From Mobula hypostoma (taxonomy: Eukaryota), in assembly GCF_963921235.1 (NCBI RefSeq), contig NC_086097.1, positions 125,986,001 to 126,050,000 of the forward strand: a stretch of DNA of 64,000 nt, in the 5' to 3' direction. The position numbers and the translations under genes were made by a program. Under the pieces are notes generated by a model, which was given only the letters and a program-made list of their open reading frames with translations, ran no database searches and had not been told where the DNA came from. How positions within the stretch are numbered: position 1 is the first letter of the stretch; every line of letters begins with the position of its first letter. This document shows positions 1-54,273 of the stretch, in pieces.

Positions 1-918
1 AAACAAGAAGCCTCAGACACTGAGTACAAATGAAAAGCATCAATAAAACATTTTTAGCTTCATTGAACTATTGCAAAGTGCAGCACCGTTATATAATTAA
101 TGGCATTATATTCAATAAAAGTTATCCAAATTTTTCTATTTCTCCAAATTCCTATGTGATGCAAGTAGTCTGAAATCATATCTGCATTCGGGTCTATCAT
201 AAACAAAACACATTTCTGAGTAAGCAACACTTTCAAAAAAAATTGTTGTCCAGTGTTACCTTTTCCTTGTGATCGAAATGCAGTTCTTATTAGTTTAATG
301 TATGAAAAAATTAATCTACAATCATTTAAAAATTATGATAGATAATTTAACCACTCTACTACTGTCCCAATTGTAAAATAAACTCTTTCTGGACAATTTC
401 CATGGCATCTTCTAACTGTTTCAGGTTCTTCTATTAAGAAGAAAAGCCTAAAGGACTTTGGGAAAAGCAATTAAGTTATTTCCTAAATATTTAATTGCAT
501 TTGTTAAATGTGAACGTAGTCTATTTCTTCATTTCCTTGTTCATTTAGGGTTAGTGAGTTGAAGGCATGCTATAGAAACATCGGAAGCGTGGCGACACTT
601 ACAGGCTGCCCCCAACACAATCCCTGTTAATTTGACCCAATGGACACATTTCACTGTCTATTTTGATGTTTCAATGTATATGTGACAAATTAAGCTAACC
701 TTTACTCTCTCTAATTGAATGGGCAAAATCATGACAAATAAATGCAGAAAAATTGGAAATTGTCTATTTTGATAGAAAGAAGTTGAAATAGAGGGTACCT
801 TTTAAGTGTGGTGAAATGAAAAGGTGTTGGTGCACAACAGAACCTATGTGTGTATATACAGGGACATCAAGCCACTCAGAAGACAAATGGTATGTTGGTT
901 TCTATTGTTGAGTACAAA

Positions 919-1505
919 TGTAAAATCATCTGGTTCTGTCAGCTGTGTAAGTCTAGGGAAGACACCCTCTGGCCCCGTCAAACGTGAGATTGAAGTGCAA
1001 GCCCCTCAAATCCCTCTGTTGAGTGGATGCTGCGTAATTTGTTACCCTGTTACAAATAAGTACCACAAAATAACAGACCGTACACTGCATACAATTAAAA
1101 GATTTAGCTTTATAATTCTTAATTTGATAAAGGGTCAGTAAGGAAAAAGCAAAAAAAGAAAAGTGCCCATTTTAATGAAACAGTCTAATGTGCAAAAGTT
1201 GGAGCTCACAATTTCCCTTTTGCTGATCCTTCTTCAATTTCCCTGGGCTTCATCGAATCACAGCCCCACTCTGGATCAACTCCTCCGACTTCTTCTCTCT
1301 GCCGTCTTCTCTCTTCTCCCCTCTCTAAAGCTCCAAGCCCAACCTTAGTGTCCCTCACCAGAGAAACCTCTCCTGAATCCGTTCATCCCAATTGGATGGC
1401 TCTCCTATCTCTTATCTTCAATAGTAACCCAAACATGCAGCTTACACAGAGAACACGAAAGCATAACAGAGAAAAAATATGAACCATGTGAACCAAGGCA
1501 TTACA
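919..1505. mobile_element. Probable solo LTR inserted in an old CR1 fragment
   Basis: TGTAA...TTACA termini; CR1 RT-like sequence breaks at gagtacaaa and resumes at tgttactgcag. No clear TSD. Confidence 0.5.
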
Positions 1506-2305
1506 TATGTTACTGCAGTTAGATAGAAATCCAGTAACACCACTCCTATAATATTTTGTGCAGGTCGGTCTCCATACCTAACACTTGTGATAGAGGAAGT
1601 GCAATGAATTTCACCAAACTGATTGTTGGGAAAGGAAATTTAGACCATAAGACATACAGTAGGAGCAAAATTAAGCTATTCAGCCCAAAAGGGCTGCTCC
1701 ACCATTCCTGCTAATTTATTATCCCTCTCAAGCCCATTCTCCTGCCTTCTCCCCTTTGACACCCTTAATACTCAAGAACCAATCAACCTCCAATTTAAAT
1801 ATACCCTTTAAGAATTGAGAAATGATTAAGCTAGTACTCAGAAGCATGAGAGGTGACCTTAATGAAACAGGCAGTATTTCTAAAACAGGGCAAAAGAAAA
1901 GATAACATCTCTCTAAGCTGTTGGGCTTTGAACTAGAGATCATAAACTCAAGATAAGGGGTAAGCCATTCAGGGCATTTTAAGAAAAGAAACTGCTTCTC
2001 TTGGAGTGCAAGGAATAGTTCTCTTTGGAGTGTAAGACTTCTCTAACCAAGAGGGCAGTCAGTGGTCATTCAAAGAACAAATTCAGAAGTGAGATTGGTG
2101 GACTTCAGAATATTTAGGAATCAAGTGGTGTGGGGTGTTTGTGCAGAAAAGGTACACATTGGTTAAAAAAAAAAGCCATGATCTTATTGGATTGGGGAGA
2201 ATGCAAAGGGTCCAAATACGTAGCTTCTCTTTGCATCCATTTCTGAAGAAAGGAACAGACCTGCTAAGCAAATAATCTTTGTTCTTATTTTGTGTATTTT
2301 TATGC

Positions 2306-2497
2306 CTGAACAGATTATTGTCAGTAAAATGAGTTAGCCTCAATAAGAAAGATTAAAAAACAATTGATTACTTTGCATATTACTTTGTTTCATTTCAGTT
2401 GAAAAAAAACGTGGATCCCTAAATCTGTTTTCTTTTTAATTTGGGTTGGGACAGCAATAGCCTTTTATGCAGATTACATAAATTCTCCATTATTTTG
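2306..2497 (+). repeat. Copy 1 of a ~200-bp diverged direct duplication (copy 2 at 7872-8077)
   Basis: Collinear shared blocks GTAAAATGAGTTAG, GATTAAAAAACAATTGATTACTT.GCATATTA, TGTTTCATTTCAG, CAGATTACATAAAT. Confidence 0.85.
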
Positions 2498-2751
2498 CAG
2501 TTAGCAGTCCACCTTTGTTTTCACTTTTATTAAACTTAGAAGTTTACATCTGAACCCCATGTTTAGGAGCCAAATTCACTCCCCATAAAACACAGGAGAT
2601 TATGCCAATGCTGGAAATCCAGAGTACATGTCAGGCAGCATCTATGGAAAGGAATAAAGAGTAGGTGTTTCGGGCTGGACCCCAACTTGGTCGCACCACC
2701 CAGCAGCCCACTATTTAACCACAGGACAATTTACAATGAACAATTAACCTA

Positions 2752-3825
2752 TGGCAGGCAGTAACTAGTGGAGTACCGCAAGGCTCAGTACTGGGACCCT
2801 GGTTGTTTACAATATATATTAATGACTTAGATGAGGGAATTAAATGCAGCACCTCCAAGTTTGTGGATGACACGAAGCTGGGCGGCAGTGTTAGCTGTGA
2901 GGAGGATGCTAAGAGGATGCAGGGTGACTTGGATAGGTTGGGTGAGTGGGCAAATTCATGGCAGATGCAATTTAATGTGGATAAATGTGAGTTTATCCAC
3001 TTTGGTGGCAAAAACAGGAAAACAGATTATTATCTGAATGGTGGCCGATTAGGAAAAGGGGAGGTGCAACGAGACCTGGGTGTCATTATACACCAGTCAT
3101 TGAAAGTGGGCAGGCAGGTGCAGCAGGCAGTGAAAAAGGCGAATGGTATGCTGGCATTTATAGCAAGAGGATTCGAGTACAGGAACAGGGAGGTACTACT
3201 GCAGTTGTACAAGGTCTTGGTGAGACCACACCTGGAGTATTGTGTGCAGTTTTGGTCCCCTAATCTGAGGAAAGATATCCTTGCCATAGAAGGAGTACGA
3301 AGAAGGTTCACTAGATTGATTCCTGGGATGGCAGGACTTTCATATGATGAAAGACTGGATCAACTAGGCTTATATTCGTTGGAATTTAGAAGATTGGGGG
3401 GATCTTATTGAAATGTATAAAATCCTAAAGGGATTGGACGGGCTAGATGCAGGAAGATTGTTCCCGATGTTGGGGAAGTCCAAAACGAGGGGTCACAGTT
3501 TGCGTTCACCAGCAACTTTGATGTGTGTTGGTTGAGGATAAAGGGGAAGCCTTTTAGGACCGAGATTAGGAAAAACTTCTTCACACAGAGAGTGGTGAAT
3601 CTGTGGAATTCTCTGCCGCAGGAAACAGTTGAGGCCAGTTCATTGGCTATATTTAAGAGGAAGTTAGATATGGCCCTTGTGGCTAAAGGGATCGGGGGTA
3701 TGGAGGGAAGGCTGGTACAGGGTTCTGAGTTGGATGATCAGCCATGATCATACTGAATGGCGGTGCAGGCTCGAAGGGCCAAATGGCCTACTCCTGGACC
3801 TATTTTCGATGTTTTCTATGTTTTC
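2752..3825 (+). mobile_element. 5'-truncated young CR1 LINE inserted in a SINE
   Basis: RT motifs GVPQGSVLGP, FVDDTKLGG, LVRPHLEYCVQFW; TTTCTATG-like tail; TSD TAACCTA (2745-2751 and 3826-3832); near-identical to ~22817-23859. Confidence 0.93.
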
Positions 3826-4139
3826 TAACCTACTAACTGGTCCATCTTTGAACTGTGGGAGGAAATCAGAGCTCCCGGAGGAAACTCAAGCACTCATGGG
3901 GTGAACGTACAAACTTCTTACAGATGGCACTGGAATTGAACTCCAAAATCTGGAAAGCCCCAAGCTGTAATAGCTTTGTGCTAACTGCTAGCGTATCGTG
4001 GTATTAGTGTTCAATCTTATTTGGCTGGACACACTTATCCCTCTGAGAAGCTGCAGCCAACCCAAGGCTATCACAGACCTGTTATTCTTCAATCTCTTTA
4101 TGGACCAGAAGAGTAAACACAGTGAGGAGCTTCAGGGCC

Positions 4140-4780
4140 ATTGGGCAGAAAAAGACTACGGATTCTAAATAACATCTCTTCCTCACTGGCAATCAACACA
4201 AGCGCACCTCAAGGATATATGCTTTGCCCTCTGCTCTGCTGTCTCTACACCCATGGCTGTGTAGCTAGGTACAGCAAAAATGCCATCTATAAGTTTGACA
4301 ATGACACTGCTGTTGTCTGCACAATCACAGATGGTGATGATCAGCTGATTGAGTGGTGTTGCAACAATAACTCAAGCCAGTAAGACCAAGGATTGATGGT
4401 GGACTTCAGGAAGAAGTCAAGAGAACACACGCCCAATCTCATGAAGGGGCCAGCAATGGAAAGGTTGAGCAATTTCAAGTTTCTGTGTATCAACATCTCT
4501 GAAGATTTATCCTGGGCCCAACACATTGATGTAATTATAAAGAAGGCACATCGACGGCTATACTGAATAAGAAAATTGAGGGAATTTGGTTTCAAACCAA
4601 AGTCTCCAGCAAGTTTCTACAGATGTACCATGGAGAACATTCTGATAGGTTACATCAGCATGTGGTATTGAGGGGCAATGCACATGATCGGAAAAAGCTG
4701 AAGAGGGTTGTAAACTCAACCAGCTCCATCGTGGGCACTAGCCTCCACAGCATAGAGGACATCTTCGAAAGGTAATGCCA
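4140..4780 (+). mobile_element. Rex1/Babar-like (CR1-clade) LINE RT fragment
   Basis: APQGYMLCPLL..LYTHGC, KFDNDT, KKAHRRLY..RKLREFG, FYRCTMENIL remnants. Confidence 0.75.
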
Positions 4781-5019
4781 CAACTACTATAGAGACATCC
4801 ACAGCATAGTAAATTTTAAATTGCTCCATTCAGGCCTAAAGATTTAATCATTGTGGAGGATTTCTTACTCTTGTGGGATATTGTCTTTTTCTGACAAGAG
4901 AGGTCCCTCTGCTTGGCAGTTAGACATGTGGATGGCAAAGCAATCTCAGGTTCTGGGACTTCCTCCATGGTGGTCGTAGGAGTTGACTCTGAGACAGCAA
5001 GAAGTGGTTCTGACCGCTT

Positions 5020-5826
5020 TCAGATTTACTTTGATCCTTGCTTCTTTCCCGGTCCCAGATTCTTTCTCTTTCTTCATCCCACTCTTTTACTTTCTCACAT
5101 TTCTTCTCTCTTTCTCGATCATGTGCTTTCTCTCTGTCTCTTCTTTTTTTCAACTTCTTTCTTTTTCTTGTCTTCATTTTTCTTCTCCTAACCTCTTGTG
5201 AGTATCTGAGTGTGCTAATTTCTCAAGAAATTCGGTCTTGTTTATCCTCTTTCATTTCCATAGCACTTTTGTCATCCTCCTCTTTTTTTTCCCTTTTTCA
5301 TCTTTCTAGGATGTGCATCTTGATCTCGGAAAGATCCATTTAGTTCACTGGAGTATTCTCTAATTAATCCTTCTATTGTTCTCTTTACAACCCTGTTGGT
5401 TTCCTTATCCACAACATCATCTGATGAATCCTCTGTCTTCATATCTCCATTGACTCCTTTCGTTTTGGCCTTCCATTCACCCTTCTTGGGTTTGGCCTTT
5501 GCATCTACTTTTACAAGCAACTTTTTGTCTCCCAGTTCATGCAATAACATTAATGCATGCAGAATAGATTCTGGTTCTTTATACCCACAAAACCTGAATG
5601 CTTGCAACTTTCTTGAATCTCCTTGAGCTCTCTTCCAGCTTAAAACCAAGCCATGTTACGCAAGTAACTGCTCGAATGATATATCAGAAGCTTTCTCGGA
5701 TATGTCGCCTACAAAATCTGTTGTGGTTGAATCACTGCTTTAATCACTTTCACAATTCCTCTGAGCAGCATGGTCCTTCCTTGGTCCAGTAGGCTTTCCA
5801 ACCAGAGGCACAGAGGTTAGCACCCA
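5020..5826 (-). pseudogene. RBM25: Processed (intronless) RBM25 fragment: RRM, linker and start of the RE/RD-rich region; disabled
   Basis: Minus-strand translation VGKPTGPRKDH...TTTDFVGDISEKASD...LLA*HGLVLSWKRAQGDSRKLQAFRFCGYKEPES...KKLLVKVDAK...IEGLIREYSSELN...MEMKEDKQDRIS*EIS...RERE matches recalled vertebrate RBM25. In-frame stops at 5656-5658 and 5740-5742, later frameshifts, no introns, no N-terminus and no PWI domain. Confidence 0.92.
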
Positions 5827-7353
5827 CAAATGTTTGCCCTCGTTGGGCAATGGTTCATGATGTACAATATTGAGAAAATTTGGCATTGTCCTGTACATTT
5901 CTTAAACACTTTCAGTTAACTCTATTGCAGGGGATATGGCATGCAAGTTGTGTGTGGATCTCCAATCAAGTTGTAGTAGCCCCAGTCAAGTATGCCCCAC
6001 AGTGCTGGACCTTTTGTTTTTAACACATAGAAGCTCAATTTGGAGTGTTGGTTGTTGTTTTTTCACAGTTATGTATGTTGTTCCCACAGGAATTATCTTG
6101 TCCCCAGCGTAAATTCTTAGGTAGATATCTGCAGGCTTCAGCTCAGTATCTTTGAAATGCTGTTCAAACTCATTTTGTGGAATTAAGCAGCTGAACCAGG
6201 ATCCAATTCCATTTTAATTAATTTGCAGTTCACTTATGGTGTAATCTATATACTTAGTTTTCACTTTGTAAATCCCAAGGCTACCCAGTCCTGTGTCACA
6301 TTCATCATTATCAGATCTTCCATCAAAAACATGCAGAATAGTGCTCTGCTTGAAACTGCAACTTGAATTTTTATCTTTTTCTCTTCCCTATGCAGCCCAT
6401 TTATTTCTGTCTGCCTGACATGCTCTTTGTATTTGTCCTACCTTGTTGCATTTTCTGCAAGTTTTGACTTTAAATATGCATTGGTCTGGTGTATGTATGC
6501 CCCTACCACAGCAGCAACACAATTTGTTCAGACAGACTGTTTTCTGTTTAGATACTGCAATTTTGTTCACACTCACGTTCATTACTGACTGCAACTCAAT
6601 TATGTTTCTGTCTGCTATTTTCATTGATACAGCTATTTCTACTGTTCTTTTAAATGTAAGTTGTGCTTCAGATAACAGCCATTTTTGAATGTTTTCTTGT
6701 AAGATTCTACAAACTAAGCCCATTACCTAAATGACAATTCTCAGATAATCTCTTCAATTTAGTCACATACATTGAAATGGACTTCCCTTCCATTGATTTC
6801 ACTTAAGAAAAGTAATATAAAGTATTCTGCAATCAATAATGGTTTTGATTCTAAATGTTCCCACATTACTTTCATGATATCAGCAAAACTCAATTCAGCT
6901 GGTATGGTTGGAGCAGTTAAATTTCTAAGCAAACTGTATGCCCTTAAACCCAATGCACTCTGCAAAACTAGCACTCACTTCTCATTAGCTATTTCATTTG
7001 CTTTAAAATAGTGCTAAATAAGATCAGTATATATTAACCAGTTATCCATTGAGTAGTCAAACATGTCAATCTTTCTGAAGTAGCTAGCAATTTCTGCTTA
7101 TTTTAGCGATCAATATCACCTGGTACTAACTGTTTGTGAACTTGTGAATTCTTCCATTTTCTGCCTTTTAAAGAACTTGATTATCTTTGCTTTTGCAAAG
7201 AAAATGTGCTGCTCTGAAAAAAATACTATGCTGTGCTTTTTATTTTAACTTGACCATTTCTCGTTGCGTTTTTTTTCTCAACGCAAACATCTCGCTGTGC
7301 TGCAACTGGTAGGTAGTTGTCTCAGGCTTGTTTTTAAAATGCATTGTCGTCAC

Positions 7354-7600
7354 TGTTGTGTTTTGTACTCCAAAACACAAAACAAATTGAAAGGAAAATG
7401 GGGAGCCAACAGATGCGATTCTTTGTTTGTTTTTACTTTGAAAAAGCTGCGCATGTATGACATGGTACCGCCATGGTGGATGTAATTCACTTATTTTTAC
7501 ATATAACCCATAATGAATTATTTAATTGAATAAGAATGTTTAATCAAACAATATATTTGCAATATTATTCAAATACTGCTGAAATATTAAATACACAACA
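7354..7600 (-). repeat. 5' LTR of the RBM25-carrying Gypsy element (247 bp)
   Basis: TG...CA termini; collinear with the LTR at 44278-44525 (shared TTTAATATTTCAG, TTTGATTAAACATTCTT, TTATGGGTTATATGTA, TACAAAACA.AACA). Confidence 0.88.
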
Positions 7601-7871: not shown

Positions 7872-8077
7872 CTGAACAAGTTATTGTCTGTAAAATGAGT
7901 TAGTCTCAAACAAGAATGATTAAAAAACAATTGATTACTTAGCATATTATCCTGTTTCATTTCAGCTGTTGAAAAACCATGAATACCTGAATCTATTTTC
8001 TTTTAAATCTGGGTTGAGGTAGCAATGGTCTTCTTAACAGATTACATAAATGTTATGATTAGCTGGTCCATTATTTT
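7872..8077 (+). repeat. Copy 2 of the ~200-bp diverged direct duplication
   Basis: Same blocks in the same order as 2306-2497. Confidence 0.85.
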
Positions 8078-22500: not shown

Positions 22501-23859
22501 CAGTTATCAAAGATGTGATAACAGCACATTTGGAAAGCGGTGAAATCATCGGACAAAGTCAGCATGGATTTGTGAAAGGAAAATCATGTCTGACGAATCT
22601 CATTGAATTTTTTGAGGATGTAACTAGTAGAGTGGATAGGGGAGAACCAGTGGATGTAGTATATTTGGATTTTCAAAAGTCTTTTGACAAGGTTCCACAC
22701 AGGAGATTAGTGTGCAAACTTAAAGCACACAGTATTGGGGGTAAGGTATTGATGTGGATAGAGAATTGGTCAGCAGACAGGAAGCAAAGAGTGGGAATAA
22801 ATGGGTCCTTTTCAGAATGGCAGGCAGTGCCTAGTGGGGTACCGCAAGGCTCAGTGCTGGGACCCCAGCTGTTTACAATATATATTAATGACTTAGACGA
22901 TGGAATTAAATGCAGCATCTCCAAGTTTGCGGATGACACGAAGCTGGGCGGCAGTGTTAGCTGTGAGGAGGATGCAAAGAGGATGCAGGATGACTTGGAT
23001 AGGTTAGGTGAGTGGACAAATTCATGGCAGATGCAATTTAATGTGGATAAATGTGAGGTTATCCACTTTGGTGGCAAGAACAGGAAAACAGATTATTATC
23101 TGAATGGTGGCCGATTAGGAAAAGGGGAGGTGCAACGAGACCTGGGTGTCATTGTACACCAGTCATTGAAAGTGGGCATACAGGTACAGCAGGCAGTGAA
23201 AAAGGCGAATGGTATGCTGGCATTCATTGCAAAAGGATTCGAGTACAGGAGCAGGGAGGTACTACTGCAGTTGTACAAGGCCTTGGTGAGACCACACCTG
23301 GAGTATTGTGTGCAATTTTAGTCCCCTAATCTGAGGAAAGACATTCTTGCTATAGAGGGAGTACAAATAAGGTTCACCAGATTGATTCCTGGGATGGCAG
23401 GACTTTCATATGAAGAAAGACTGGATTGACTAGGCTTATATTCGCTGGAATTTAGAAGATTGTGGGGGATCTTATTGAAACATATAAAATTCTAAAGGGA
23501 TTGGACAGGCTAGATGCAGGAAGACTGTTCCCGATGTTGGGGAAGTCCAGAACGAGGGGTCACAGTTTGAGGATAAAGGGGAAGCCTTTTAGGACCAAGA
23601 TGAGGAAAAACTTCTTCACACAGAGAGTGGTGAATCTGTGGAATTCTCTGCCACAGGAAACAGTTGAGGCCAGTTCGTTGGCTATATTTAAGAGGGAATT
23701 AGATATGGCCCTTGTGGCTAAAGTGATCAGGGGGTATGGAGAGAAGGTAGGTACAGGGTTGTGAGTTCGATGATCAGCCATGATCATACTGAATGGTGGT
23801 GCAGGCTCGAAAGGCCGAATGACCTACTCCTGCACCTATTTTCTATGTTTCTATGTTTC
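19570..23859 (+). mobile_element. Near-full-length young CR1 LINE (ORF1 SGNH esterase; ORF2 APE endonuclease + RT), disabled
   Basis: ORF1: CRKC..LELQL, AIVIGDSIVRG, VVVHIGTND (split by an insert), DGLHL. ORF2: NARSICNK, GITETWL, GVVYRPP, MGDFN, YLDFQKSFDKVPH, GVPQGSVLGP, FADDTKL. (TTTCTATG)n tail. Several stops and frameshifts. Confidence 0.95.
20099..20439 (-). mobile_element. RTE-derived short non-autonomous element inserted in CR1 ORF1
   Basis: TSD GGTRCACAT (20090-20098 and 20440-20448) splits the VVVH/IGTND motif; minus-strand 3' end GGACGAACAAC is RTE-like; CpGs retained. Confidence 0.7.
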
Positions 23860-36929: not shown

Positions 36930-38245
36930 GACACGCAAACGCGAGGAAATCTGCAGCTGCTGGAAATTCAAGTAACACACACAAAATGCTGATGGAATGC
37001 AGCAGGCCAGGCAGCATCTCTAGGAAGAGGTACAGTGAACGTTTCGGGCCGAGACCCTTCGTCAGGACTAACTGAAGGAAGAGTTAGTAAGAGATTTGTA
37101 AGTGGGAGGGGGAGGGGGAGATCCGAAATGACAGGAGAAGACAGGAGGGGGAGGGATGGAGCTGAGAGCTGGAAAGTTGATTGGCAAAAGGAATACGAGG
37201 CTGGGGAAGGGAGAGGATCATGGGACGGGAAGCCTAGGGAGAAAGAAAGGGGGAGGGGAGCCCAGAGGATGGAGAGCAGGTAAAGAGTTATAGTGAGAGG
37301 GACAGAGAGAGAAAAAAGAGAGAAAAAAAAGGGGGGGGAAAAGAAAAAAACAAACAAACAAATAAATAAATAAATAACGCAAATACGTGGAAATCTGCAG
37401 ATGCTGGAATTTCAAGCAACACACATAAAAGTTGCTGGTGTGCGCAGCAGGCCAGGCAGCATCTCTAAGAAGAGGTACAGTCCACGTTTTGGGCCGAGAC
37501 CAGCAACTTTTATGTGTGTTGGTTGAAATAAATGAATAAATAACGAATGGGGTACGAAGAGGAGGTGGGGCATGAATGGAAGTTAGAGAAGTCAATGTTC
37601 ATGCCATCAGGTTGGAGGCTACCCAGACGGAATATAAGGTGTTGTTCCTCCAACCTGAGTGTGGCTTCATCTTGACAGTAGAGGAGGCCGTGGATAGACA
37701 TATCAGAATGGGATTGGGACGTGGAATTAAAATGTGTGGCCACAGGGAGATCCTGCTTTCTTTAGCGGACAGAGCGTAGGTGTTCAGCGAAACGGTCTTC
37801 CAGCCTGCGTCGGGTCTCACCAATATATAGAAGGCCGCATCGGGAGCACCCGACGCAGTATATCACCCCAGCCGACTCACAGGTGAAGTGTCGCCTCACC
37901 TGGAAGGACTGTCTGGGGCCCTGAATGGTGGTAAGGGAGGAAGTGTAAGGGCATGTGTAGCACTTGTTCCACTTACACGGATAAGTGCCAGGAGGGAGAT
38001 CGGTGGGGAGGGATGGGGGGGACGAATGGACAAGGGAGTCACGTAGGGAGCGATCCCTGCGGAAAGCGGGGGGGGGGGAGGGAAAGATGTGCTTAGTGGT
38101 GGGATCCCGTTGGAGGTGGCGGAAGTTTTGGAGAATTATATGTTGGACCCGGAGGCTGGTGGAGTGGTAGGTTAGGACCAGGGGAACTCTATTCCTAGTG
38201 TGGTGACAGGAGGATGGAGTGAGAGCAGATGTGCGTGAAATGGGA
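36930..38245 (-). mobile_element. Penelope-like element 3' part (GIY-YIG endonuclease and tandem pseudo-LTR repeats)
   Basis: PLVLTYH, CKWNKCYTC, FTCESAGVIYCVGCSRCGLLYIGETRRRLEDRFAEHLRSV, LEEQHLIFRLGSLQPDGMNIDFSNF; hammerhead-like motif at 37034-37069. Confidence 0.9.
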
Positions 38246-39305: not shown

Positions 39306-40558
39306 TTGTGACAGCACTGAGCCACACAACTCAGCTGACTGAGGGACTTTATCCGCTCAGGGTCGCACACCATCACCGACTTTATCCACTCAGGGGATCT
39401 CCCATCCACTGCTACCAACCTTATAGTTCCCACACCCCGCACTTCCCGTTTCTACCTCCTACCCAAGATCCACAAACCTGCCTGTCCTGGCCGACCTATT
39501 GTCTCAGCTTGCTCCTGCCCCACCGAACTCGTTTCTGCATACCTCGACACGGTTTTATCCCCCCTTGTTCAATCCCTTCCTACCTATGTTCGTGACACTT
39601 CTCACGCTCTTAAACTTTTCGATGATTTTAAGTTCCCTGGCCCCCACCGCTTTATTTTCACCATGGATGTCCAGTCCTTATATACTTCCATCCCCCATCA
39701 GGAAGGTCTCAAAGCTCTACGCTTCTTTTTGGATTCCAGACCTAATCAGTTCCCCTCTACCACCACTCTGCTCCGTCTAGCAGAATTAGTCCTTACTCTG
39801 AATAATTTCTCCTTTGGCTCCTCCCATTTCCTCCAAACTAAAGGTGTAGCTATGGGCACCTGTATGGGTCCTAGCTATGCCTGCCTTTTTGTTGGCTTTG
39901 TGGAACAATCTATGTTCCGTGCCTATTCTGGTATCTGTCCCCCACTTTACCTTCGCTACATTGACAACTGCATTGGCGCTGCTTCCTGCACACATGCTGA
40001 GCTCGTCGACTTTATTAACTTTGCCTCCAACTTTCACCCTGCCCTCAGGTTTACCTGGTCCATTTCCGACACGGCCTTCCCCTTTCTAGATCTTTCTGTC
40101 TCTGCTTATCCACTGATGTCTACTATAAGCCTACTGACTCTCACAACTATCTGGACTATTCCTCTTCTCACCCTGTCTCTTGCAAAAATGCCATCCCCTT
40201 CTCGCAATTCCTCCGTCTCTGCCGCATCTGCTCTCAGGATGAGGCTTTTCATTCCAGGACGAGGGAGATGTCCTCCTTTTTTAAAGAAAGGGGCTTCCCT
40301 TCCTCCACCATCAACTCTGCTCTCAAATGCGTCTCCCCCATTTCACGCACATCTGCTCTCACTCCATCCTCCCGCCACCCCACTAGGAATAGGGTTCCCC
40401 TGGTCCTCACCTACCACCCCACCAGCCTCCGGGTCCCACATATTATTCTCCGTAACTTCCGCCACCTCCGACGGGAAGGACTGATGAAGGACTTCAGCCC
40501 AAAACATCAACTGTACTCTTTTCCATAGATGCTGCCTGGCCTGCTGAGTTCTCCTTGC

Positions 40559-40630: not shown

Positions 40631-41789
40631 TTGTGTTAGGACACTCTCCAATCTGTGCACCTACCGAAGTTTGTCAAAGTTTTAGATGACGTGCTGAATC
40701 TCTGCAAACTTTGAAGAAAGTAGACGTGCCTGCTTGTGGGGGCACTTACATGCTGGTCTCGGGACAGATCCTCTCACGAAGGAATTTAAAATTACTGACC
40801 CTTCCACCTCTGACCCCTAATGAGGACCAGCTCGTGGACCCCCAGTTTGTTCCTCCTGTAATCAATAATCCATTCTTTTGGTTTTGCTGATATTGAGTGA
40901 GAGTTTGTTGTTGTGGTACTATTGAATGATTGAACTGTCTCACTGGATGGAAAATGATTGGAGGGGCCTGGTGGATAAAAGCCCTATTTATACCTCCCGC
41001 ATGCATTGAAGGGCTCTGACAGATGAACATCCTCAGCCACACACACAAACTGCTAGAGACACTCTGCAGGTCAGGCAGCATCTATGGAGGGGAATAAGCT
41101 ATCAACATGTCGGGCTGAGAGCCTTCACCAGGACTGGAAAGGAAGGGGGAAGAAGCCCGAATAAGAAGGTGGGAGGGGAGAGGAGAGGAGGAGTATAAAC
41201 TCGCAGGAATTAGGTAAGACTAGGTGAGACAGGTGAGGGGGAAGGTGGTGTGTAGGGGAGAAGGGGATGATGTAAGAAAACTGAGGGTGATAGTTGGAAG
41301 AAGTAAAGGTTATAGTTCCTTTTCTGTGTCTGTCGCTGTAATTCTTTTATATGAGAACAGTTGAGCGGAAGTATCATAGAACAGAATTATAGAGATTGAC
41401 ACAGAACAGGAACTATAACAGGTTCCTGCCAAACTTGGCTACTGTGCTCCACCCTTTGAACTCATTACTGTGGATCGGAAAGAAATAGTAATGGACAAAG
41501 CAGTGAGAGGAGGCTTTCAAAATGTGAAAGGAAGTAGTGATGTCAGGCACTGCACTGACACGTTATCTACATCGTCCACTGAAGCTTGCCTGCGATGCCT
41601 CACCTTATGGTATAAGTGCAGTCATGTCACACGTTATGAGTGATGGAAGAGAATGATCCATAACCTTTACATCACGTTCCCCTACCATTGCAGAGGAAAA
41701 TTACGCGCAGATTGACAGAAAGGTCTTGAGTCTGGTTTGGGGTGTAAAACGTGCCTGATTCTGTACAGGAGAGAGTTTACAGAATCAGA

Positions 41790-42410
41790 TTACAAGTACT
41801 GGTTGAAACAGTACTGATTAATGCAGCTGCAAAGAATGCGCTACAGCGCCTATATTTCATCGGGAATTGGAGGGGATTTGGTATGCCACCCAAGACACTC
41901 AGAAATCTCTACGGATGTATTGTGGAGAGCTTTCCAATTGGTTGTTTCACCGTCTGGTATGGGGTGGGGGGCGGTGGCAAGGATCGAAAGAAGTTGCTGA
42001 AAGTTGTGAACTCAGTCAGCTTCTTCATGGGCACTAGCCATCATTGGTATCCAGGATACCTCTAAGGTGCAAGGCCTCAGAAAAGGTGGCGTCCATCATT
42101 AAGGACCCCCATCACCCAGGGCGTAGCCTCATCCATTGCTGCCAACAGGGAGGAGGTACAGAAGTCTAAGCCACACACTTTTAGTGACTGAGGAACAGCT
42201 TCTGCCCCTCTCCCATCTGATATCTGATTTCTGAATGGACATGGAACTCATGAACTTTTTGCACTAATTATTTAATTTAACTATTTTATATACCGTATAT
42301 ATATGTGCTGCAATTCAGATATTTTATTATTTTGTATTGTATAATAATAATAATGTGCTAAAACAACAAATTTCGTGACATGTGGCGGTAATGTTAGACC
42401 TGATCCTGGT
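41790..42410 (+). mobile_element. Rex1/Babar-like LINE 3' fragment nested in Gypsy RNase H
   Basis: QRLYFIGNWRGFG..KTLRNLYGCIVES and DRKKLLKVV motifs; Gypsy homology resumes at ~42412. Confidence 0.78.
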
Positions 42411-44277
42411 CTCATTCTGTATGGTCGTCAGCAAGGTGCTCCACTAACAGCAGCAGCATGAACACAGAGATGGGCTCTGTTTCTTGGAGGACACGATTAC
42501 AAGATTGAATTCAAGAGGCCGACCAATCATGGAAATGCTGATAGATTGGCCTGTTTACCTTCGGAAACAGAAGCACTGGAAAAATTTACTGAAAAAGACA
42601 CTCCTCTTGACGTATTCTCCCTAATGCAAGTCCAAAGTCTCCCTGTTACGGCAGAGATGATCCAAAGGGAAACCAGAAAAGGCACCACACTGTCTCAGGT
42701 CTACAGGGCAACCCAACATGGCTGGAATGTGGAGCAGAAATTCCAGTTCCCCCATTGTTACCATCGCTGGGATGAACTTGCCCTTGACAGGGGTTGCCTT
42801 AGGTGTGGATTGAGAGTTGCTGTACTATCCAAGCTGAGAGTTAAAGTGTTGGAGGAGCTACATGCTGGTCATCTAGGCGTGGTCAAAATGAAAGCATTGG
42901 CGCAAAGCTTTGTCTGCTGGCCTGGGAGAGGTCAGCAGACCGAGCAGCTGGTCATGCACTGGACAGATGCCAACACGTCCAGAAGATGCCTCGCAGTCCC
43001 TGAGATTGTCCTGCATTGCCCAGGCAGAGGATTCATGTGGCTTTCGCCAGACTATTCATGGGTACAAATTTCTTGGTAGTAGGGGATGCAACTACGAAGT
43101 GGCCAGAAGTAATGCCAACAGTCTCCATTACGTCCTCACACACTGTTGATGTATTGATAAGTCTCTTTTGAAGGACTGGTGTTCCAGAACACCTAGTCTG
43201 TGGCAATGGAGCACAGTTCAAGGGGGAACAGTTTCAGTCATTCATAAAAATACATGGAATAAGACATATTATATCTGCACCGTACCGCCCAGCTACAAAT
43301 CGCAGCTTGGTGGACAGGTTTCTCCAGAGTCTGAAAAGCGCACTGCAAGCAATGTCAGCGGAACACACTGCACTGGATCAGAAGCTCACCAATCCCTCCT
43401 TGCACACAATACACTCCACACGCAACACCCCATCAGCTGTGCTGTTCCTGGGTCATCCCTTGCCTTAACGCTTGGATCTCCTCAAGCCCAGTGTCAGAAG
43501 CAGGATGCAGGACGAACAGCTGAGACAAACTGAGGGCTCTGCAAACAGGGAGGTTCAATGTTTCACTCCTAGATAAGCGAGGGACTATAGAGAGGATCAA
43601 AAATGGGTACATGGAAAGATTAGGGCCGGAACTGACTTAGTGTTGGTGTAGTGTGTTCTGCTGATGTTGTTCAGGTAAATGTTCTTTAGACTCCGGACAA
43701 AACTTAGCGCCAGGCTGCCATTTGTAGCTGGGTGGTTTGGTGCAGATGTAATATGGCTTATTCTATTCAATTTCAGGGATGATTGAAACTGTTCCCCCAC
43801 AAACTGTGGTCCATTGTCACTGACTAAGCGTCCTGGAACACCAGTCCTCTTGAAGAGATTTCTCACTCTCCTGCACGGTGGAGATTGCATTGATGTCATC
43901 CGGAGATGACACATCGATCAGCTGAGGAGAGCAGAGTCAATTGTTAGAGAAGGAAATTGGCTACCGCTGTCAGACCCACTTCCTGCACTCCCAGAGTCAG
44001 CTCCCACAACCACGAAGGAGGGCCCAGAACCCGAGATTGCTTCACACCCACACCTCTCACCTGCCAAGCAGAGTGAAAGATGTTATCTCCCAAGAGTAAG
44101 GAATCCTCCACTGTGATTAAATCTTTAGGCCTGAATGGAGCAATTTAAAATTTACTATGATGTGGATGCCTGTATACAGTAGTTGTATTATATAGTAAAC
44201 TATGTACAGTATATATTTGAGATGCATTTTATGAGGAAGTTTATAATATAATAAGTTTATAGCTAAGCAGGGAGGAG

Positions 44278-44525
44278 TGTTGTGTCTTTAATATTTCAGT
44301 AATTGAGTAATCTTGTATATATATATTATTTGATTAAACATTCTTGTTCGTTTAAACAATTTGTTATGGGTTATATGTATAAATATTTGAATTGCATATG
44401 TCTTCATGCTACCAGGGGATATGTGCGCACCTCACTTAATGGTAAACTCGAAGTTATACCCACATTTTGTACTCCCGTGTCTTCATTTGAATTAGTTTAA
44501 TGTATTGAAGTTACAAAACATAACA
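44278..44525 (+). repeat. 3' LTR of the Gypsy element (248 bp)
   Basis: Starts TGTTGTG immediately after the PPT and ends ATAACA; homologous to 7354-7600. Confidence 0.88.
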
Positions 44526-52150: not shown

Positions 52151-54273
52151 CTTATGTACAATAGAGAGCATCACCTGGTATGGAGGGGCCACTGCACAGG
52201 ATCGGAAAAAGCTGCAGAGGGCTGTAAACTCAGCCTGCTCCATCGTGGGCACTAGCCTTCCATCAGCAAGGGCAACTTCAAAATGCGATGCCTCAAGAAG
52301 TTGGCCTCCATTGTCGAGGACTTCCACCACCAGGACCATGCTCTTCTCATTGCTACCATGAGGGAGGGGGCTGAAGACACGCACTCAACGTTTTAGGAGC
52401 AGCTTCTTCCCCTCTGCCGTCAGGTTTCTGAACAGTCCGTGAACCCATGAATGCTACCTCATTATTTTTTTTTTCTATTTTGCATCACTTATTTGATTTT
52501 TTATATATTATGCAGCAGAATATATTTCATGTATTGCACTGTACTGCTGCTGCAGAGCAACACATTTCACAGTATATATCAGTGATCATAAAGCTGATTC
52601 TGATTTGTGATTGTCCCTTGTGAGTCCATTCTCAAAATTGTCCCATCAAGGAATTCTCATGCACCCACAGGCTGCCCTGGTGCATTGATTTTCACTCTGA
52701 TAAACCGACCTGCACATGCAACACCATCTGGATTCATCACATCCTGATGCTGCGACTGTTCTGGCCAAGACTGCAAGAAACTGCGCAGAGCTGTGGACAC
52801 AACTCAGCCCATCATGGAAACTTGCAGACTGAAAAATAGCTTTTCCCCCAGAGCTATAATTGCTCTGAACCAATCGATCAATCATCATCCATAAATTTGT
52901 TGTATTGCTACTTTAATACTGGTTTTATGGCTATCATGCAGCTGAGTTGCGCTTTTGTACTGCTGGACATTGCTTGTACTGGCTGGTTACCTAATTTTAT
53001 TTATTGTTTATTTATTTTATTTGTTGTTTTATAGCATTGAGTACGAGAGTTGCAAACTCATTTTCACTGTATTGGTGCATGATGAATTGTACTATGCGAC
53101 GACAATAAAAATATTTCATTTCATTTCAAACTAAACTTCTTTTAACTGAGTCTGTGCTTTGTACTGCCAGGGGAAAGCAGCCAATATAATCCAAGGTCCC
53201 TCCCACCCTAAGCATTTTCTCTCCACCGCCCCCCCCCCCCGCCAACCGCCCTTCCATCAGGCAGAAGATACAAGAGCTTGAAAACTTGCATCACCAGGTT
53301 CAAGGACAGCTTCTATTCCACTGCATATAGACTATTGAAGAAACCCCTTATACAGGAGGGGATCCTGCACAAGGGCTACTGCACAGGATCGAAGTACGCT
53401 GCAGAGAGTTGTAAAATTAGTCAGCTTCATCATGGGTACTAACCTCCACAGTATCCAGGTCACCTTCAAGAAGCAGTGTCTCAGAGTAGGACCTCCACCA
53501 CCTCTTCTCACTGTTACCATCAGGAAGGTGGTACAGAAGCCTGAAGGCAAACACTCAGTGATTCAGGAACAGCTTCTTCCCTCTGCCATCCGATTCCTAA
53601 ATGGACAGTGAACGCATGAAAACTACCTCATTACTTCTTTCATTTCCTATTTTTTCTCCACTACTTATTTAACGTAACTATTTTATATACACTTACAGTA
53701 ATTCAGTTTTCTGTTCTATTATCGTGTACTGCATTGTACAGCTGCCACAAAGTTAACATATTTCACAACGCATGCCAGTGATAGTAAACCTGGTTCTGAT
53801 TCAATACAGATGAAAACTTGACCTCACATCTACTGTTAGATTAGGCGCACAATTGTTATGTTTCTTGTAATTCAACTTTCTTATGCTTGCTTATATTTTT
53901 ATATAATCAGATGCAATTATTTAATGTATTTTCTAGCAATTATGGTACAGTCACTTCTGTATTTTTCTAGAAATGTCTTAGCTTTCAGTAGCACAGGACC
54001 ATGCCACTGGAATCTGGCTGTGTTGTAGGTTAGTTGTTATCACTGGAATTTTGTTATTTCTAGTCTGAGTATGACACGATCACGACTACTTTTTTCCTTT
54101 ATCTTTTCTTTGTTTTCTCAACTCTTCCTTCTTGTTCATTCTTTGTTCTTGTAATGCTTAATGAACAGCTGTAAGCAGTAAGTTTTGTGCTTCATTCTTG
54201 ATTTCCAAAGAATCTTTGAATCATAAAAGCACCAGGATTCAACATGGCCCATGCACCTTATTGTCTGCCTGCT

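Follow-up and report, generated by a model that had tools for sequence, protein, structure and literature searches.

We describe a Gypsy-type long terminal repeat (LTR) retrotransposon on the minus strand of a 64,000-nucleotide stretch of the Mobula hypostoma genome (contig NC_086097.1, positions 125,986,001 to 126,050,000; the whole stretch is called the window below), in which a spliced piece of the mRNA of the splicing factor gene RBM25 takes the place of the pol core. The element very probably arose by LTR-mediated capture of RBM25, and the chimera probably went on to become a large, old and non-autonomous LTR family. Read along the minus strand, an LTR (7600-7354) is followed by decayed gag/protease-like sequence, the RBM25 cDNA and an integrase tail, an order that a preliminary description of this DNA had already given and whose coordinates hold. 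The locus displays three features of LTR-mediated retrocopies: an intron-less mRNA segment, lacking both a poly(A) tail and a target-site duplication (TSD), lies between flanks of a single element whose open reading frames (ORFs) it has replaced.

Read-through translation of 5898-5272 matched RBM25, with an RBM25-like protein of Heptranchias perlo as the top match (E 9e-72), suggestive of a cartilaginous fish, and Polypterus RBM25 at E 6e-54. Frameshift-aware alignment of the insert (5873-5025) gave identities of 161/227, 144/198 and 157/265 residues with the proteins P0189, P0188 and P0003, respectively. The identification in the preliminary description therefore stands, while the bounds it had set (5826-5020) have moved. 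A stretch of about 55 bp that had been left unassigned in fact aligns to an RBM25 lead segment, MLYTMNRCPTEGKQ, from 5873 onward; only about 7 nt (5880-5874) are left over, and the insert consequently nearly abuts the Gypsy side. We found this lead segment in the Heptranchias perlo model, in its shorter isoform and in one Logan protein, and it was absent in the ten bony-vertebrate proteins compared. Of the two isoforms, the insert is colinear and gap-free with the one shorter by four residues, so that one particular splice form is the likely template. Homologues of RBM25 carry the RNA recognition motif (RRM) domain PF00076, and RRM structures were matched as well; a Pfam search with the decayed RRM copy of the window gave no match. 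Shark-type RBM25 proteins (P0122, P0188 and P0189) have an extra in-frame segment ahead of the VLVP exon, in two forms four residues apart. Skipping of an 18-residue exon by the insert was considered and rejected, fish and shark proteins being without that exon, which is present in the amniote-type sequences P0037 and L001. Gaps of the window near 5391 and 5534 were likewise rejected as family-wide marks, since the sequence that the window lacks there is present in loose ends of other copies.

A second copy of the same LTR family in the window, which holds no RBM25, served as a reference. In this copy Pfam recognized RNase H and then integrase over 41402-43561 (E 5e-18, 2e-6 and 5e-8), and none of that stretch has a counterpart in the window element, in agreement with the loss of pol at the insert proposed earlier. 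The LTR of the window element matches the LTR of the second copy at 44278-44525, which follows a purine tract; the two are 82% alike over 123 nt (E 4e-28). For the tail (5017-4780), an alignment of 241 columns with 43966-44186 of the second copy shows 77.6% identity (E 9e-50), a match that the preliminary description had already named. With both LTR and tail matching the same second copy and the RNase H and integrase core missing, the pol core was replaced and not interrupted. RNase H lies ahead of integrase in the second copy, which is the Ty3/Gypsy domain order; that order excludes Copia, though not BEL/Pao or retroviruses. A reverse transcriptase (RT) domain was not identified in either the window element or the second copy. 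The two upstream ORFs named earlier fared differently: gag is upheld by ESM Atlas, where 6388-6726 fell into CCHC/Retrotrans_gag clusters with scores of 0.88-0.94, while the label of protease stays with its position and with MELDPGSA (6212-6189), which we take to resemble a protease motif. ESM Atlas gave no match for the protease piece, none of 417 candidates was a gag-protease relative, and a search of viral contigs found no relatives of the element.

The insert is intronless, as had been claimed. Introns were mapped from proteins that read into them, for which 67 of 148 short proteins were kept (alignment to P0189 at no less than 70%); 25 of these start at residues 109-111, and ends fall at 163-166 (26 proteins), 223 (2) and 251-253 (16). 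At the genomic locus L001, an amniote-type RBM25, an AG precedes the exon that starts at about residue 163, a GT follows residue 223, and 2.5 kb separates residues 223 and 224. The window is contiguous at all four mapped intron sites (~5602, 5446, 5277 and 5195), and a fifth intron was presumably lost near 5824, judging from the isoform pair. Furthermore, the insert lies in the sense of the element and is truncated at both ends. No poly(A) was found around it, the longest A run at 5060-4990 being 3, and no TSD was found around the junctions, where the longest shared word was 4 nt, a length reached in 1997 of 2000 shuffles. These results bear out what had been said of the orientation, the truncation and the missing poly(A) and TSD.

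A different origin for such a locus would be a processed pseudogene of RBM25 made by a long interspersed nuclear element (LINE) and inserted in a Gypsy element, with its 3' part and poly(A), one of the TSDs and the pol core then lost by deletions before the composite was amplified. LINE-like repeats are abundant in the window, one of them replaces the 3' end of the element itself, and old copies do lose their hallmarks. However, this history requires that pol and the 3' part of the mRNA were deleted at the same points, and the 3' anchoring, poly(A) and TSD of a LINE-made processed pseudogene are all missing from the insert. Replacement of ORFs together with truncation at both ends is the LTR-mediated pattern, according to the available text of Tan et al. 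(2016, PMC5131818). We therefore consider a LINE-made pseudogene very unlikely and favor LTR-mediated capture, which the preliminary description had also preferred; the spliced, sense, two-end-truncated insert that replaces pol supports that choice.

The RBM25 insert is not confined to this locus. Contigs of the runs X1, X9 and X16 were aligned at 80% likeness to 4950-5990 (1,041 bases), and 7,602, 7,936 and 6,709 contigs, respectively, were recovered, 199, 129 and 91 of them at least 99% alike. Mean depth over 5335-5824 amounted to 1,389x (X1), 1,822x (X9) and 1,064x (X16) of a single-contig unit, the unit being the locus's own contigs in X1 and, as a proxy, the median of the listed long pieces in X9 and X16; summed contig depth is not copy number and gives an order of magnitude only. 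In X5 the depth of the RBM25 core reached 39,000-82,000 against 41, and high core depth was seen in four organisms (labels A, B, C and G). Depth peaks over the protease end and the integrase tail (987-3,884 units) are of the same order as the core, which suggests that the chimera accounts for much of the family as a whole. Across 20 long pieces of other copies, divergence from the window ranges over 13-20% (median 17%), and the spread must accordingly be old. Taken together, these depths point to a family present at ~1,000-2,000 copies per organism, to an order of magnitude. With RT, RNase H and integrase missing and many copies present by this order-of-magnitude proxy, the chimera behaves as a non-autonomous family, and the amplification suggested earlier gains support from contig depth and from joints in other copies.

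Contigs at the LTR end show how family members are distributed: 434-463 of them run into unlike flanks, and 10 contigs in X1 and 5 in X5 link the 3' untranslated region to the LTR and possibly belong to non-chimeric members. Dispersal is seen for LTR-bounded family members and not for the chimera copy by copy. It could be argued that the RBM25 piece was multiplied in some other way, by LINE mobilization or by tandem or segmental duplication, and that a minority of its copies lie inside Gypsy elements; the low depth and few long-sided joints at the 5' junction would fit such a history. Yet the high depth is confined to the internal coding block and falls 3'-ward, where joints reach the integrase tail, core depth matches that of the Gypsy flanks, and the other copies stand as far from the window as stated above. 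We find multiplication by such routes highly improbable.

Depth along the insert revealed two forms of the chimera. From 5335-5369 to 5265-5299 it drops 17-21-fold, to ~110-145 units, and over 5020-5194, a low-complexity stretch that is maybe under-counted, it is 15-21 units; 5195-5299 still aligns well to RBM25 despite the drop. LINE-made pseudogenes should gain depth toward the mRNA 3' end, and the fall toward the 3' side is the opposite of that expectation. Among 15 listed joints (835 in all), 6 connect 5010-5018 to 5284-5337, most with at least 31 letters on the short side, and the joint 5014-5304 recurs in X5, X21 and X22. Because the depth drops at ~5300 and the joints lead to the same site of the integrase tail, most copies appear to carry a shorter insert. 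We infer that a common short form ends at ~5300, near a KKKKEK run, and that the window is a rarer long form ending at ~5025. One X16 contig, with 21 differences and 14 gaps, spans the 3' junction of the long form and may represent another copy or the orthologous locus. X1 contigs with zero differences span both junctions (5795-6153 and 4985-5265), but they are not independent evidence, X1 being possibly the source sample.

In window coordinates the points at which the two forms return to the integrase tail lie no more than ~10 nt apart, which also speaks against a LINE-made pseudogene. By eye, the letters inside the short-form joints (single contigs) resemble the part of the second copy that immediately precedes the shared tail. 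A little more Gypsy sequence thus seems to remain in the short form, which is unlikely to have come from the long form by simple deletion. It probably came from a second template switch, from a purine-rich RBM25 run (purine fraction 0.86 at 5312-5277) to a purine-rich part of the integrase tail. The same two forms bear on the idea that a double-strand break in a genomic Gypsy element was patched with RBM25 cDNA or mRNA and that the patched element then spread in trans. Templated repair of this kind is expected to leave the same anatomy as template switching by RT, but under it the insert could lie in either orientation and would have one 3' junction, and we found a sense insert with two 3' forms at almost the same tail site; we give this idea scant credence. 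Run X22 showed further particularities: over 5205-5300 it has a few contigs at a depth of ~470-490, which are probably the parent RBM25 mRNA, and at 5271 its deep contigs differ from ~90% of the DNA depth, which agrees with the window. The joint 5014-5304, present in X9 as well, has a depth of 68 in X22 and 44 in X21, versus 3-18 for the listed chimera-like pieces of X22. This depth is a lead for an expressed copy, X21 and X22 being only guessed to be RNA and possibly holding DNA.

We propose the following course for the capture of RBM25 by the Gypsy element. A germline particle would have co-packaged RBM25 mRNA, and RT would have left the element RNA for the RBM25 mRNA and then returned, making two template switches. 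The product would have retained its LTRs and packaging signals and lost RT, RNase H and integrase, so that it could have moved only in trans. Intact helper elements would then have spread the chimera to about a thousand or more sites, and a further, separate switch would have yielded the short form.

Several observations weigh against this course, in addition to the limits on depth given above. Microhomology at the junctions amounts to candidates: we saw Ala-Thr codons directly before the point in P0189 where the alignment begins, and runs rich in purines where the short form joins the tail. Among the short contig pieces, none showed a chimera bounded by two LTRs and a TSD. The 5' junction has a low depth, 122-176 over 5860-5894, and few joints. 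The joint 5841-5955 occurs in X9 (side 35) and in X16 (five contigs, side 23), the joint 5866-5955 in three runs (side 22-23), and X5 adds two further RBM25-to-protease joints, listed without side lengths; the X9 joint of 35 letters is the one listed joint with a side of at least 31. We think that the low depth reflects the window's own decay at this place. Sharing of the junctions by other copies is accordingly seen at the 3' side, where joints reach the same integrase-tail site, and is weakly indicated upstream. In addition, Pfam recognized neither gag nor protease in the window element, with nothing useful in 6/6 and 4/4 pieces.

The success of the family raises the possibility, in our opinion a slight one, that the RRM of RBM25, fused in frame to Gag-protease, or an exonic RNA signal, gave a pol-less element a replication advantage. 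Hints in this direction are that, within the window, the RRM lies in the frame of the protease tail and that the RRM is complete in the dominant short form. Against it, the protease-RRM stretch is broken by a stop at 5904-5902, the lead segment lies in another frame, and other copies differ in length there. No Gag-RBM25 fusion protein was named among 120 of the 172 longer matches, which is weak evidence, 150 of 339 further matches being nameless and not screened. In a metagenome scan, the one locus among the rows listed was a genomic RBM25 gene and not a chimera.

LTR-mediated capture of the kind favored here is a known mechanism; its scale at RBM25 is unusual. Tan et al. (2016, Genome Res 26:1663, PMC5131818) found the same kind of structure in flies, mosquito, zebrafish, chicken and mammals, and the available text gives microsimilarity at 25/29 Drosophila junctions, central to its model, and, for the Gypsy family BLASTOPIA, one site at which switching back is preferred. 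As at our locus, an mRNA truncated at both ends replaces internal ORFs, leaves no poly(A) or TSD, and can re-transpose non-autonomously. The same text reports nine Drosophila retrocopies at 18 insertion sites, two retrocopies re-transposed to more than one site and 5 LTR-mediated zebrafish cases, whereas the RBM25 chimera has ~1,000-2,000 copies by depth in four organisms and is old (13-20%). Three other elements offer parallels at a greater distance. Maize Bs1, as outlined in the available portions of PMC5131818 and PMC7264820 (citing Elrouby and Bureau), is also an LTR retrotransposon with transduced host gene sequence; it is a plant element with three donor genes and a new chimeric gene, in contrast to one donor and a dead copy in a vertebrate. 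The HERV-K/FAM8A1 chimera (PMC5131818, in its available text) likewise joins a vertebrate LTR element to a captured host mRNA, but is described as one processed pseudogene within an element of the retrovirus type and not as a large family. The DNMT retrotransposons that Symbiodinium and charophytes harbor (de Mendoza et al. 2018, PMC5890265) have a host-derived domain in the coding region and were amplified to hundreds; in the part of that paper available, the cargo is enzymatically active, whereas here it replaces the pol core. In the open literature (Repbase/Dfam, subscription journals and supplements lying outside the search) we found no published RBM25-bearing retrotransposon, and the main text of mobulid and Vertebrate Genomes Project (VGP) preprints contained no mention of RBM25. 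The available text of a VGP preprint (PMC13320880) states that retrocopy candidates with at least 40% repeat-masked sequence are filtered out; standard retrocopy pipelines therefore likely miss such a chimera.

The features of the window element and of the second copy are collected in Table 1. The window copy is dead. A primer-binding site (PBS) named earlier was not confirmed: a PBS conventionally begins with TGG, and the bases directly after the LTR have no such start. At the other end, a repeat at 4783-4663, 84% alike to 52176-52296, replaces the end of the element, and a search of 1-4780 found no 3' LTR, so that none is left within the window; in other family members the LTR lies 74 letters past the position equivalent to 4780. 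We take the repeat to be LINE-like from its RT-like motifs. The loss of the 3' LTR was absent from the preliminary description, as were the shark-type lead segment and the minority status of the long form.

Table 1. Coordinates of the chimeric element, its parts and its reference copy within the window
Feature	Position	Strand	Basis and remarks
5' LTR	7354..7600	-	247 nt; inverted ends TGTTG...CAACA; end-to-end alignment with second-copy LTR 44278-44525
Primer-binding-site position, not confirmed	7340..7353	-	no TGG start
Decayed gag	6390..7160	-	translation; Cys/His knuckle-like motifs at ~6519-6418; stops and frameshifts
Decayed protease-like region and spacer to 5' switch point	5881..6260	-	position; motif MELDPGSA 6212-6189
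5' junction zone	5874..5880	-	~7 nt left unassigned
Spliced RBM25 coding fragment	5025..5873	-	849 nt, element-sense, stops and frameshifts; frameshift-aware alignment
RBM25 lead segment	5824..5873	-	alignment to shark-type proteins
RBM25 RRM domain	5500..5730	-	two stops; PF00076 in homologues
Short-form breakpoint zone	5284..5337	-	purine-rich; other copies pass here from RBM25 to integrase tail
Integrase C-terminal tail and 3' non-coding region	4780..5017	-	77.6% to 43966-44186
LINE-like repeat fragment, opposite sense	4126..4783	+	occupies expected place of polypurine tract and 3' LTR
Second copy, same LTR family	41390..44525	+	RNase H, integrase, purine tract, 3' LTR; no RBM25; reference

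Other repeats lie in and around these elements. Two copies of a 180-nt segment (7872-8051 and 2306-2483, 82% alike) share one orientation and both have stops in the single reading frame compared. They lie on either side of the element and may reflect an old local duplication. Two LINE-like copies 20 kb apart (2751-3698 and 22817-23733) are 94-95% alike and belong to a younger repeat family. The second copy contains an inverted duplicate of a portion of its own integrase region (43155-43335 and 43685-43865, 79% complementary) and is broken at ~41780-42420, between RNase H and integrase, by a repeat related to the one that replaced the 3' end of the window element. In addition, 39380-40470 resembles a Penelope-type or other retroelement RT, judging from its motifs, and has inverted arms at 38105-38244 and 40337-40476 (92%).

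LTR-mediated gene capture in animals is known mostly from low-copy cases. If our reading is true, a captured block of host exons at a depth like that of its flanks would mean that such chimeras can become a major vertebrate repeat family. With their two 3' forms, the copies of the chimera would provide a large natural sample for hot spots of template switching, and they could help to date an old shark-type splice form of RBM25. In these genomes the family could also mislead the annotation of RBM25 and the mapping of reads. Should the captured domain have brought an advantage, a vertebrate retrotransposon would have spread via a stolen splicing-factor domain to an abundance about that of its helpers, leaving more than 1,000 potential sources of small RNAs that match an essential splicing gene. 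Finally, the finding raises the question of whether PIWI-interacting RNAs from these copies act on an essential splicing factor.

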